From assembly GCF_041886205.1 (NCBI RefSeq), contig NZ_CP169031.1: DNA of 64,000 bases; one strand, written 5' to 3'. Source of the DNA: Escherichia coli (GTDB lineage Bacteria; Pseudomonadota; Gammaproteobacteria; Enterobacterales; Enterobacteriaceae). A program made the translations under genes and the position numbers. Position 1 is the first letter of the stretch. Every line of letters starts with the position of its first letter. This document shows positions 1 to 59,765 of this stretch, one piece after another. The notes below the pieces were generated by a model. It saw nothing but the letters and a program-made list of their open reading frames with translations, was not told the DNA's origin and did no database searches.

Positions 1-198
1 AAGACGATCTAACTTCCATACGACCAGGGTGTCACCTCTGGAAAGCATACGCAAAACCTTTTTTAGCCCAGGGCGTTCAGTCTGTTTGCCGCTCGCCTTA
101 TCCTCAAAAATTAGCTCACATCCTGCGCTTTCAAGGGCATTTCGTTGCAAAGCAGTGTTTTGTTCATTTGTTGATACGCGTACATAGCCGATCAGCAT
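1..198 (-). CDS. cin: Serine recombinase (DNA invertase, Cin/Gin/Hin family), N-terminal 66 aa; gene continues beyond window start
   Basis: Minus-strand ORF not in track (runs off window edge): ATG at 198..196, translation MLIGYVRVSTNEQNTALQRNALESAGCELIFEDKASGKQTERPGLKKVLRMLSRGDTLVVWKLDRL has the catalytic-Ser N-terminal motif (YVRVST) of invertases/resolvases. Confidence 0.8.
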   Translation of the reverse strand, partial: MLIGYVRVSTNEQNTALQRNALESAGCELIFEDKASGKQTERPGLKKVLRMLSRGDTLVVWKLDRL

Positions 199-261
199 GA
201 TTTTTACTCTAACCGGCTCATTTAAACCGTCTGGTCTGTTTCCTCCGGCTCTACAAAAATA

Positions 262-939
262 ATGTCCATCATTTTTAATGGACACTATCGTATGAAACAC
301 CGGACCTGGATCACTGAAGCTTTACGTCTTCACTTTGAAGAACATTTACCCCGGGTTGTGGCCGGGCGTCGCCTGGGTGTACCAAAATCAACAGTTTGTA
401 GTATGTTCGTGCGCTTTCGGAGAGCTGGCCTTTCGTGGCCTTTGCCCGCAGGCATGTCGGAGCAGGAACTTGATGCCTGCCTTTACGGACAATTTTCCAC
501 GGTACCAGTCGTACGTCCTGAAAGCACCGTTATATCCGAAGCCCCCGTGGTAAAAAAACGTCCCCGGCGGCCCAACTTCCCTTATGAGTTTAAAATCGCC
601 TTAGTGGAGCAGTCACTGCAGCCCGGAGCCTGTGTGGCGCAGATCGCCCGGGAAAACGGAATCAACGATAACCTGCTCTTCAACTGGCGCCATCAATACC
701 GGAAAGGTGGCCTGCTGCCTTCCGGAAAAAATATGCCGGCACTGCTTCCCGTGACGTTAACGCCGGAGCCGGATAATAAAATCCCGGCCCCCGCACAGGA
801 ACCAGAGCAGATAAATACACCGTCCGACAGTCTGTGTTGTGAGCTGGTTCTGCCGGCCGGAACTCTCAGGCTTAAAGGTAAACTGACGCCGGCGTTATTA
901 CAGACACTTATCCGCGAAATAAAAGGGAGCAGCCACTGA
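262..939 (+). CDS. tnpA: IS66-family accessory protein TnpA (HTH)
   Basis: 225 aa; C-terminal half (PRRPNFPYEFKIALVEQSL...IARENGINDNLLFNWRHQY) resembles IS66 OrfA HTH; stop overlaps tnpB start (ATGA at 936-942). Confidence 0.75.
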   Translation: MSIIFNGHYRMKHRTWITEALRLHFEEHLPRVVAGRRLGVPKSTVCSMFVRFRRAGLSWPLPAGMSEQELDACLYGQFSTVPVVRPESTVISEAPVVKKRPRRPNFPYEFKIALVEQSLQPGACVAQIARENGINDNLLFNWRHQYRKGGLLPSGKNMPALLPVTLTPEPDNKIPAPAQEPEQINTPSDSLCCELVLPAGTLRLKGKLTPALLQTLIREIKGSSH

Positions 940-1286
940 TGATATCTCTCCCTGCAGGTTCGCGTATCTGGCTGGTTGCAGGTATCACCGATATGCGAAA
1001 TGGCTTTAACGGCCTGGCATCAAAAGTTCAGAACGTCCTGAAGGATGACCCGTTCTCCGGACACCTGTTCATCTTCCGCGGACGCCGGGGTGACCAGATA
1101 AAAGTGTTGTGGGCTGACAGTGACGGACTGTGCCTCTTCACCAAACGCCTGGAGCGGGGCCGCTTCGTCTGGCCAGTCACCCGTGACGGCAAGGTGCACC
1201 TTACTCCGGCTCAGTTATCCATGCTTCTTGAAGGTATCAACTGGAAGCACCCGAAACGAACGGAACGCGCTGGAATCCGCATATAA
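939..1286 (+). CDS. tnpB: IS66-family TnpB (IS66 Orf2-like)
   Basis: 115 aa MISLPAGSRIWLVAGITDMRNGFNGLASKVQ...HLFIFRGRRGDQIKVLWADSDGLCLFTKRLE, a highly conserved IS66 Orf2 sequence. Confidence 0.9.
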   Translation: MISLPAGSRIWLVAGITDMRNGFNGLASKVQNVLKDDPFSGHLFIFRGRRGDQIKVLWADSDGLCLFTKRLERGRFVWPVTRDGKVHLTPAQLSMLLEGINWKHPKRTERAGIRI

Positions 1287-1305
1287 CCCGTTGTAAAGTG
1301 AGGAT

Positions 1306-2877
1306 ATGGACACCTCACTTGCTCATGAGAACGCCCGCCTGCGGGCACTGTTGCAGACGCAACAGGACACCATCCGCCAGATGGCTGAATACAACCGCCT
1401 GCTCTCACAGCGGGTGGCGGCTTATGCTTCCGAAATCAACCGGCTGAAGGCGCTGGTTGCGAAACTGCAACGTATGCAGTTCGGTAAAAGCTCAGAAAAA
1501 CTTCGTGCAAAAACCGAACGGCAGATACAGGAAGCACAGGAGCGAATCAGCGCACTTCAGGAAGAAATGGCGGAAACGCTGGGTGAGCAATATGACCCGG
1601 TACTGCCATCCGCCCTGCGCCAGTCTTCAGCCCGTAAACCGTTACCGGCCTCACTTCCCCGTGAAACCCGGGTTATCCGGCCGGAAGAGGAATGCTGTCC
1701 TGCCTGTGGTGGTGAACTCAGTTCTCTGGGATGTGATGTGTCAGAGCAACTGGAGCTTATCAGCAGCGCCTTTAAGGTTATCGAAACACAACGTCCGAAA
1801 CAGGCCTGTTGCCGGTGCGACCATATCGTGCAGGCACCAGTACCTTCAAAACCCATTGCACGCAGTTATGCCGGAGCGGGGCTTCTGGCCCATGTTGTCA
1901 CCGGGAAATATGCAGACCATCTGCCGTTATACCGCCAGTCAGAAATATACCGTCGTCAGGGAGTGGAGCTGAGCCGTGCCACACTGGGGCGCTGGACAGG
2001 TGCTGTTGCTGAACTGCTGGAGCCGCTGTATGACGTCCTGCGCCAGTATGTGCTGATGCCCGGTAAAGTCCATGCTGATGATATCCCCGTCCCGGTCCAG
2101 GAGCCGGGCAGCGGTAAAACCCGGACAGCCCGGCTGTGGGTCTACGTCCGTGATGACCGTAACGCCGGTTCACAGATGCCCCCGGCGGTCTGGTTCGCGT
2201 ACAGTCCGGACCGGAAAGGTATCCATCCACAAAATCACCTGGCCGGTTACAGCGGTGTGCTTCAGGCCGATGCTTACGGTGGTTACCGGGCGTTATACGA
2301 ATCCGGCAGAATAACGGAAGCCGCGTGTATGGCTCATGCCCGGAGAAAAATCCACGATGTGCATGCAAGAGCGTCCACCTACATCACCACGGAAGCCCTG
2401 CAGCGTATCGGTGAACTGTATGCCATCGAGGCAGAGGTCCGGGGCTGTTCAGCAGAACAGCGTCTGGCGGCAAGAAAAGCCAGAGCCGCGCCACTGATGC
2501 AGTCACTGTATGACTGGATACAGCAACAGATGAAAACACTGTCGCGTCACTCAGATACGGCAAAAGCGTTCGCATACCTGCTGAAACAGTGGGATGCACT
2601 GAACGTGTACTGCAGTAATGGCTGGGTGGAAATCGACAACAACATCGCAGAGAACGCCTTACGGGGAGTGGCCGTAGGCCGGAAAAACTGGATGTTCGCG
2701 GGTTCCGACAGCGGTGGTGAACATGCGGCGGTGTTGTACTCGCTGATCGGCACATGCCGTCTGAACAATGTGGAGCCAGAAAAGTGGCTGCGTTACGTCA
2801 TTGAACATATCCAGGACTGGCCGGCAAACCGGGTACGCGATCTGTTGCCCTGGAAAGTTGATCTGAGCTCTCAGTAA
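1306..2877 (+). CDS. tnpC: IS66-family transposase TnpC
   Basis: 523 aa with N-terminal coiled-coil, CxxC...CxxC zinc motif (CCPACGG...CCRCDH) and DDE core typical of IS66 transposases. Confidence 0.9.
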
Positions 2878-3025
2878 ATATCAATACGGTTCTGACGAGT
2901 CGCTTACTTTTACTCTAATGCGTTGTTCTTATGAGTCTGCGAATTTTAAAGAACAAAGCGTTATGCACAGAAATAACAATCTGAATAGGTTCCTGCTTGA
3001 TTTTTGTTAGATCCGGGAGGAGCTT

Positions 3026-3310
3026 ATGCAGATTTTGATTTTTTTAATGTCCATTATTAGTGGAACCTATTTATTTCTTACTGGAGTTAGGCGTGGAGCT
3101 TATAAGCCATGTTTTTTACATTGGCTTGAAGCATGGCTGCTTGCCATAAAAGGTGGTTTTGTTGGTTTTTGTCTTGCAGAAGTTCAGTGGGGAAACTCAT
3201 TTTTGGATGTGGTTGCTTTTTTGATATGTAGTTGGAATAGCCATTTTGTATTAAGAATAACCAAAATATGGGTTTTTCACTTGATTTACGAATGTATTGG
3301 CAAATTATGA
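3026..3310 (+). CDS. Hypothetical small hydrophobic (membrane) protein
   Basis: 94-aa ORF in AT-rich DNA with strong RBS (GGGAGGAG, 6-nt spacer) before ATG; predicted 2-3 hydrophobic segments. Unusual composition, so could be non-coding. Confidence 0.35.
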   Translation: MQILIFLMSIISGTYLFLTGVRRGAYKPCFLHWLEAWLLAIKGGFVGFCLAEVQWGNSFLDVVAFLICSWNSHFVLRITKIWVFHLIYECIGKL

Positions 3311-3370
3311 ACAACCAGATGAGAAGTTACTTTGCATACCATTACCTCCTGACAACGTAGGAGGGAACTT

Positions 3371-3700
3371 GTGCTTGACACACAGGAATTAGCTCCAGTT
3401 GCTATTGCGCTCCTGCTTTCAGTAATTGGTGGGATAGGCACGTTCCTGATGGATGTCCGAGACGGTCGCCAGTCTGGCAATTTGTTGGGATTGGTTACGG
3501 AGATCTTTGTTGCAGTGACAGCTGGCGCGGTGGCGTACCTATTGGGGCAACACGAGGGCTGGGAGTTATCAATTACGTACTTAATGGTAACGATAGCCAG
3601 CAATAACGGTCATGAGGTGATTTCAGGGATGAAACGAGTGAATATCGATAGCATTCTGAATGTTCTTACAAGTTTGGTGAAAAAGGGAGGCGGGAAATGA
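3371..3700 (+). CDS. lydA: Holin (P1 LydA-like)
   Basis: 109 aa, GTG start preceded by GGAGGG; hydrophobic N-terminus (VAIALLLSVIGGIGTFLMD) typical of holins; first gene of lydA-lydB-hdf-darA cluster as in P1. Confidence 0.7.
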   Translation: MLDTQELAPVAIALLLSVIGGIGTFLMDVRDGRQSGNLLGLVTEIFVAVTAGAVAYLLGQHEGWELSITYLMVTIASNNGHEVISGMKRVNIDSILNVLTSLVKKGGGK

Positions 3701-4140
3701 TTGGCTGGGGTGTATGCGTTCTTGCGTTAGCCTTAGCCGATCGCTATTTGCTAAAACGCAAGGACATCACGCATTTAGAACTTGGTGATGTGGAAATTAA
3801 ACCGGGTTTCATCCGGGTGCCGTTCAAATACCGGTCTAAATTCCCGTTTTTGCGCGGCGCAACGGTCAGATATTGGATCCGCGATGTTCAGAAGCCAACG
3901 ACAGTGATTGAAGGCGAACAACGTTGTCTGACGTCGGCTGAACAGGGCGAAAACAGTGAATGGTTGTACATACCCACTGAATATATGGGTAAAGGAGAAC
4001 GGCTGTGGCATTTCAACGTCATGGTTACGCATGGCGACTCGTTCATTAACCCGTTGTATCGGATTTTCCCTGTTACTCAGCAAATCCGCAGAAGTTACGT
4101 AATAAATCTCGCACAGGATGTGTCAGATGACGAAAAATAA
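3697..4140 (+). CDS. lydB: Antiholin-like protein (P1 LydB-like)
   Basis: 147 aa, start overlaps lydA stop (translational coupling); position matches P1 lydB. Confidence 0.6.
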   Translation: MIGWGVCVLALALADRYLLKRKDITHLELGDVEIKPGFIRVPFKYRSKFPFLRGATVRYWIRDVQKPTTVIEGEQRCLTSAEQGENSEWLYIPTEYMGKGERLWHFNVMVTHGDSFINPLYRIFPVTQQIRRSYVINLAQDVSDDEK

Positions 4141-59082: not shown

Positions 59083-59748
59083 ACTTGCCGGGTACGTCTC
59101 CGGCGAGGGCTTCCACCTCCGTATGCTTTTCGGCGCACCGCGCCCTGGCTGCAATTCGGTAACAGGGGATGCATAACCCTGGCTTCCAGCGTGATTAGCG
59201 CTTTCAGCATGACGGGATATACCCGTAAATTCGTGGAACTGTACCCAAAGTGCTGTTAAGCACCGCTGTTACGCTGAAAAGAAAACGCAACAGGAAAGGA
59301 CGCTGACCAACAGATGGCCCCTTCTCGTTCATCTGGTTAATCACACCAGCGCCCTTACCTGTTGTGTCTCCCCGTTCCCTAATACACAGACGGGGACACT
59401 CTGCGGTCGATTTTTTGACGGGGGACGACTCATACCCCGTGGCGTCTGGCTTCTTAGGCCGCTACCATCATCAGATCATCGTTTGCATTTACTTTAATGG
59501 TCAGTTTCTAAACCGCCGCAAAGTCGCTAACCATGACGAAAACCCTGAAAAAAAACGCCCACCCGAAGATGGGCAAACTGGAAGCTCGTAACGCACTTCG
59601 GAGTTGCCACTTAGGCGCATGGTCAACCTGGCAACTCGGTGGTTTGTCTGGGAGGACTAGGCCCAGCCATGCTTACCGCCGCGCCTGTCGCGGCTAACAG
59701 CTAAATCGCTCTATAAATCACGATTCATTGAGGCGATATTACACTAAT

Positions 59749-59765
59749 AAATTTATTAGAGCAAT
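59749..59765 (-). promoter_or_regulatory. C1 operator (perfect consensus) at dmt 3' end, upstream of tRNA/tci/ban operon
   Basis: AAATTTATTAGAGCAAT, 17/17 to reverse complement of consensus; overlaps a partial forward copy (ACACTAATAAATTT). Confidence 0.75.

Follow-up and report, generated by a model that had tools for sequence, protein, structure and literature searches.

The open reading frame (ORF) at positions 3026-3310 of the window (the whole stretch of 64,000 nt analysed here) can be identified as the phage P7 allele of lydC, a named gene whose annotation dates from 2003. The identification as such is ordinary and concerns something already known. Its main value lies in correct annotation, as RefSeq plasmids label P7 lydC, a LydA-family holin paralogue, 'hypothetical protein'.

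Identity and distribution of the P7-type lydC allele

The features of the region are the following:

1..198, minus strand: 5′ part of cin (DNA invertase), with its ATG as the complement of 196-198 and a translation beginning MLIGYVRVSTNEQ...; assigned by 209/209 identity to P7 and by the P7 annotation
210..2907, plus strand: ISCro1-family (IS66 family) element of 2698 bp, with database matches to 'IS66-like element ISCro1 family transposase'; context, not a lysis gene
2908..3025, plus strand: native cin-lydC intergenic spacer, complete on the right side of the IS, with the predicted lydC promoter and the divergent promoters of cin
2909..2925, plus strand: Op(lydC), predicted C1 repressor operator taken from the P7 feature table; weak and doubtful
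3015..3022, plus strand: Shine-Dalgarno sequence GGGAGGAG of lydC, read directly from the sequence
3026..3310, plus strand: P7-type lydC, ATG at 3026 and TGA at 3308-3310, 94 aa; LydA-family holin-like membrane protein
3324..3342, plus strand: late promoter LPdar (-22 box, -10), transferred by offset from the P7/P1 annotations; drives the lydA-lydB-darA operon; the sequences of P1 and P7 agree again from shortly before it
3371..3700, plus strand: lydA, main holin and lydC paralogue; Pfam PF16083, 30.1 bits against a cutoff of 28.4
3697..4140, plus strand: lydB, LydA antagonist (antiholin); Pfam PF16084, E 8e-104

Positions 2908-3380 of the window, which include the whole ORF, are 100% identical to Enterobacteria phage P7 (AF503408 / NC_050152) over 473 nt without a mismatch, and the same stretch is 100% identical in phage RCS47. 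In the P7 record the ORF is lydC (AF503408 34383-34667, protein AAQ07503.1), described as "lysis determinant C; putative holin", and the RCS47 record labels it "putative lysis determinant LydC" (CDN90778.1). Both phages share the gene and its product with the window, at the nucleotide and at the protein level, together with the neighbours on the lydA side, but they have no IS at this site, whereas the window carries the ISCro1-family element between lydC and cin, 118 bp upstream of the lydC ATG.

The slot of the gene between cin and LPdar/lydA is that of P7. Its lydA side is identical, and on the cin side taking out the IS and one copy of its 8-bp target duplication leaves flanks that are an exact match to P7. 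The P7 annotation places the predicted C1 operator Op(lydC) upstream of lydC and LPdar downstream of it, followed by lydA, lydB, odaE/hdf and darA, and the genes downstream of lydC in the window are the P7 set. The lydC gene stands alone between cin and the late dar operon (lydA-lydB-...). Downstream of the lydC region the match to P7 is close but imperfect, with 29 mismatches in 3473 nt. A scan with the 17-bp C1 consensus ATTGCTCTAATAAATTT, allowing at most 3 mismatches, found 14 sites other than Op(lydC) in the window (12515-63287), where 0.34 were expected by chance; these 14 sites confirm the window as a P1/P7-type, immunity-controlled genome. Among the 14 are sites on opposite strands that overlap at 59738-59765.

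A first-pass annotation, made from the letters alone, had pointed out a 94-aa ORF with an excellent Shine-Dalgarno sequence, encoding a very hydrophobic, Phe/Leu/Trp-rich protein in a strongly AT-rich stretch between an IS66 element and lydA. All of this is borne out. The ORF has the coordinates given above, and the GGAGG core of GGGAGGAG lies 5 nt before the ATG; the GRAVY of the product is 0.95, and 45 of its 94 residues are L, I, F, V or W (14 L, 10 I, 9 F, 7 V and 5 W). The GC content of lydC is 34% and its GC3 27%, compared with 48% and 51% for lydA and a GC content of 48% for the whole window, and the gene is located between the IS66-family element (210-2907) and lydA (3371-3700). What the first-pass annotation missed is that the ORF is an already named gene, homologous to the adjacent holin. 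An ORF of 75 aa runs antisense to lydC (3087-3314, minus strand) and is probably a by-product of the AT-richness.

The P7-type lydC allele is rare: it is present in 20 plasmids, in P7 and in RCS47. The 20 plasmids were found in PLSDB at ≥95% protein identity, and most of them label the product "hypothetical protein". The ORF is intact and of full length in 20/20 carrier plasmids and in both carrier phages. The search for further relatives covered about 15 billion proteins overall; beyond variants of 95-100% identity, none turned up when 5.8 billion proteins were searched by word index and 1.84 billion cluster representatives exhaustively with phmmer. One phmmer candidate, P0004, was rejected as an artefact, as it is an 894-aa repeat protein that matches one motif of 23 residues many times.

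Homology to holins and predicted protein anatomy

In phage P1 the same slot is occupied by a lydC gene of 93 aa, which is annotated "holin by homology; 30 pct identical to LydA". BLASTP aligned the window protein with P1 LydC at 30% identity over 73 ungapped, collinear residues from the N-terminus (E 5e-11), and the overall identity between the two is 27-31%. BLASTP of the window protein against LydA gave no match, and detecting its homology to LydA needed P1 LydC as a bridge or the use of profiles. With hhalign, the alignment of P7-type sequences matched P1-type LydC at a probability of 96.7% and a profile built from LydA only at 96.6% (E 4.8e-10, 78 collinear columns). The PHROG family 1527, 'holin', matches window LydC over its full length (E 1.3e-35, a value to be read with the possibility that the family contains the window sequence itself), as well as P1 LydC and LydA. 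LydA (30.1 bits) and P1 LydC (30.4 bits) both just pass the gathering threshold of 28.4 bits of profile PF16083 (Phage_holin_3_3), but the P7 type does not, the window ORF having no Pfam match at E ≤ 1. The window ORF had no match in NCBIfam either, and a PDB sequence search with window LydC returned no relative.

In an alignment of 17 LydC and LydA sequences the columns G13, F17, L18, A40, S69 and N71 are invariant, and the window protein keeps all of them; R22 and G44 are nearly invariant in the same set. Because of the profile matches and the kept invariant residues, we regard the window ORF as a genuine, though highly diverged, representative of the LydA/LydC holin lineage and a paralogue of LydA, not as a chance ORF.

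The first-pass annotation had also considered that the frame might be spurious, arising in AT-rich promoter DNA. It is true that divergent promoters occupy the cin-lydC spacer and that AT-rich DNA occasionally gives long ORFs. Nevertheless, when 2908-3370 was shuffled 2000 times at the mononucleotide level, only 9 shuffles gave an ORF of at least 94 aa on either strand. The collinear homology to P1 LydC and LydA is significant, the length, the position, the motifs and the invariant residues are conserved, and a deletion found in one group of variants is in frame. We consider this reading refuted, with a negligible residual probability. In P7 and RCS47, which lack the IS and are thus phages of the kind in which the first-pass annotation had proposed to check the conservation of the frame, the ORF is identical.

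P1 LydC (YP_006498.1) resembles the P7-type protein in its slot between cin and LPdar, its length (93 versus 94 aa) and its two N-terminal hydrophobic helices, and the two types share the motifs G..xFL..V(R) and (I)CS.N. They differ in GRAVY (0.40 for P1 LydC versus 0.95 for the P7 type), in GC3 (47% versus 27%) and in the C-terminus, which is polar in P1 LydC but hydrophobic in the P7 type. The Shine-Dalgarno sequence GGGAGGAG of the P7 type is the strongest of any allele, whereas P1-type alleles have the weaker AAGGAA or AGG. LydA of P1 and P7 (PF16083, PHROG 1527) is a paralogue of LydC, encoded by the adjacent gene and assigned to the same PHROG family. It shares 22-26% identity with P7-type LydC and is set apart from it by an extension at the N-terminus and by a basic tail, KKGGGK.

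Kyte-Doolittle analysis of window LydC gave three hydrophobic spans, of which those at residues 1-21 and about 34-53 are strong and that at 60-76 is weaker. AlphaFold2, run with the 17-sequence alignment, placed helices at 2-22, 30-54, 58-70 and 72-93 (mean pLDDT 78), and the conserved S69-x-N71 lies at the break between the last two. Hydropathy and AlphaFold2 thus agree in predicting two long hydrophobic helices (about 2-22 and 30-54), which would provide the at least one transmembrane helix expected of a holin.

The C-terminus sets the P7 type apart. Its residues 72-93 have a mean hydrophobicity of 0.31 and a moment of 0.05, i.e. they are hydrophobic and non-amphipathic, whereas the P1-type C-terminal tail is polar and amphipathic (mean hydrophobicity -0.26, moment 0.38). 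The only charged residues within 72-93 of window LydC are R77, K80, E89 and K93. The hydrophilic, charged C-terminal tail typical of holins is thus absent from window LydC, while the tails of the P1-type proteins and of LydA are polar. As to the distribution of charges, the N-terminus of window LydC is uncharged, a loop with a charge of +3 (RRGAYKP) follows helix 1, and the C-terminus is net positive. This pattern would fit an arrangement with the N-terminus outside and the loop inside at least as well as the class II topology with two transmembrane domains stated for P1 LydC. Because the hydrophilic, charged C-terminus is missing, P7 LydC may differ in topology.

Allelic variation and proposed role in lysis

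Across the 13 P1-like records compared, LydA is 99-100% identical. In the same records LydC falls into a P1-type group, with 84-100% identity among its members, and the P7 type, which shares 26-31% identity with all P1-type proteins. A third allele class occupies the same slot in other elements (e.g. WP_000145199.1 in NZ_CP023961.1, L017 1232-1495, 87 aa) and is annotated 'phage holin family protein'. As this class is 63% identical to the P1 type and 28% to the window protein, the P7 type is the outlier of the series. There are hence at least three classes of lydC alleles in P1-like phage-plasmids beside an invariant lydA, which bears on the question of how lysis by redundant holins is tuned across hosts. 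LydA is expressed late, from LPdar, and is conserved at 99-100% across P1-like elements, whereas lydC is polymorphic. In SJ46 (locus L016, 1146-1490) the P1-type lydC is annotated with an N-terminal extension of 21 aa, probably due to a mis-called start.

A DNA alignment revealed sharp edges of the divergent segment. The cin gene is almost identical up to its ATG, the cin-lydC spacer is diverged with recognisable homology, the coding region is about half identical, and near-perfect identity returns at LPdar, about 10 nt downstream of the lydC stop. The segment between the cin ATG and this point can be described as a cassette, a deeply diverged, AT-rich homologous replacement within a backbone that is otherwise identical to P1. 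The region lydC-cin-S had already been listed as hypervariable in P1-like phage-plasmids (PMC9603915), and LydC was noted to be the only lysis protein in which P7 departs from P1 (PMC9025707).

The low GC3 of only 27% raises the question whether P7-type lydC might be a decaying or neutral, AT-drifted remnant that is no longer selected for function. The isolation of the protein cluster, with only variants of 95-100% identity among about 15 billion proteins, the missing Pfam match and the non-essentiality of lydC (PMC10695390) would be in line with such a remnant. Variation within the P7 type points the other way. In two variants of the P7 type, 7-8 of 473 nt are changed relative to the window, with 6-7 differences in the 118-nt spacer and one in the 285-nt ORF, the conservative substitution I81V. 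Among these variants the coding region is thus about 14 times less variable than the upstream spacer. The only indel seen, in another cluster of P7-type variants, is an in-frame deletion of 3 codons. Moreover, the ORF is uninterrupted and complete in every carrier plasmid and phage, it keeps all family-invariant residues, and it is preceded by the strongest Shine-Dalgarno sequence of any lydC allele. We therefore judge decay to be quite improbable. Coding constraint on lydC is also indicated by dN/dS values of 0.19-0.79, which refer to P1-type alleles; between P7-type and P1-type alleles synonymous sites are saturated.

Functional data come from P1. The cloned P1 lydC gene is lethal or growth-arresting, and its knockout delays lysis in Escherichia coli and Enterobacter cloacae, while LydC on its own is not sufficient for plaque formation (Bednarek et al. 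2022, PMC9025707). In that work P1 LydC was described as an accessory holin alongside LydA, the pinholin LydD and the SAR-endolysin Lyz; an early promoter was predicted for lydC, and early expression was suggested to set the balance between LydA and LydD (PMC9025707). CRISPRi knock-down of P1 lydC had no effect on plating (EOP 1.1), which classifies the gene as non-essential (PMC10695390).

Together with the linkage to lysis genes, lydC being located immediately upstream of lydA (holin) and lydB (antiholin), these data suggest that P7 LydC is probably a small inner-membrane holin paralogue of the LydA family, accessory to lysis timing like P1 LydC. We hold this with good but not full confidence because the function is transferred by orthology at only about 30% identity. 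By extension from the P1 orthologue, P7 LydC would insert into the cytoplasmic membrane and be toxic when over-produced. It would add to the pool of hole-forming or depolarising protein, by which the lysis trigger would be advanced, and as a non-essential accessory holin it would act with LydA, LydD and Lyz in bringing about lysis at the programmed time. Going by the annotation, P7 lydC would be expressed from an early promoter, maybe under C1 control, and not from the late promoter of lydA.

The C1 control is doubtful because Op(lydC) has 6 mismatches to the consensus ATTGCTCTAATAAATTT and its core CTCTAAT is mutated in the sister P7-type variants L003 and L004. A strict scan of 2750-3450 found no consensus sigma-70 promoter. 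An RNA-element reading of the lydC region is unsupported, since Rfam on 2850-3420 gave only a chance-level match to PK-PYVV (20.5 bits versus a gathering score of 65, E 0.33).

Instead of forming holes itself, P7 LydC could be a regulator, i.e. an antiholin or timing modulator that acts through hetero-oligomers with LydA or LydD, with a topology changed by its hydrophobic C-terminus. The fold-level homology to LydA makes hetero-oligomerisation plausible, the C-terminus is hydrophobic rather than polar, and AlphaFold2 gives four helices, not two plus a tail. P1 LydC, too, is merely accessory and brings about no lysis alone, and its authors' idea of early expression balancing LydA and LydD would suit a modulator (PMC9025707). 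However, the cloned P1 gene is lethal, as a holin would be (PMC9025707), and its knockout delays lysis, while loss of an antiholin should advance it. Furthermore, a dedicated antiholin, LydB, is already present. We consider a purely regulatory function unlikely.

The role of an accessory holin, as in P1, thus remains the preferred reading for P7 LydC, but the two proteins might not be functionally equivalent. The hydrophobic C-terminal helix could constitute an extra membrane segment and lead to a different topology, which would make the P7 type an allele-specific determinant of lysis timing or host adaptation, or a modulator of LydA/LydD, on a sharply bounded cassette imported from an unsampled low-GC relative. 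We regard this as a rather speculative possibility with a low probability; if true, lydC would be a polymorphic 'lysis-tuning' locus of P1-like phage-plasmids.

The first-pass annotation had suggested a membrane-acting exclusion or lysis-modulating factor. The second half of this suggestion stands, as the ORF is the P7 allele of lydC, a paralogue of LydA whose P1 orthologue is an accessory holin (PMC9025707). The first half fared less well. A small hydrophobic protein encoded in a hypervariable region of P1-like elements (PMC9603915), with predicted expression from a non-late promoter, might be thought of as a superinfection-exclusion or abortive-infection factor acting at the membrane. Yet the homology of P7 LydC is to holins, and if the C1 operator were real, lydC would be shut off in lysogens, the state in which exclusion is required. 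No literature supports such a role, and the PADLOC defence models gave no family for the window ORF at E ≤ 1. An exclusion function appears very improbable.

Insertion of the ISCro1-family element and the cin gene

The IS is flanked by an 8-bp target duplication, TTTTACTC, at 202-209 and 2908-2915. Removal of 210-2907 plus one copy of TTTTACTC restores the P7 junction, and the flank to the left of the IS is identical to P7 at 209/209 positions. The terminal inverted repeats are imperfect, matching at 18/30 positions with an offset of 1 nt. The left IS end is without the canonical leading G of GTAAGCG, and the first IS ORF (262-939, 225 aa) has a long N-terminal extension before the usual IS66 TnpA-like region. 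The IS-lydC junction was found neither in P7 and RCS47 nor in any record of PLSDB or the complete E. coli genomes.

The 118 bp preceding the lydC ATG are native throughout, and the insertion has therefore left intact any promoter that they contain. For cin the situation differs. The IS end is located 11 bp upstream of the cin ATG, with the short GAG Shine-Dalgarno sequence of cin kept inside the duplicated TTTTACTC, and alignment with the P1 annotation puts the equivalent of the P1cin -10 element, TAAAAT, at about 2941-2946 on the minus strand, on the far side of the IS. By this placement, the IS separates cin from its promoters. Inversion of the C-segment switches the tail fibre and the host range. 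Because cin is cut off from its promoters, this inversion may be reduced or frozen in the IS-bearing element.

Further peculiarities were seen at the cin locus of related elements. In RCS47 (L015, 2636-3176) cin is annotated as a two-part pseudogene. The invertase gene beside lydC has the orientation opposite to that in P1 and P7 in NZ_CP023961.1 and in SJ46. In the P1-like plasmid p28322-3 of Salmonella Heidelberg (NZ_CP051361.1; L004, 1-480), which carries P7-type lydC, sopE, the gene of an SPI-1 type III effector, is annotated near cin, where tail-fibre genes normally sit.
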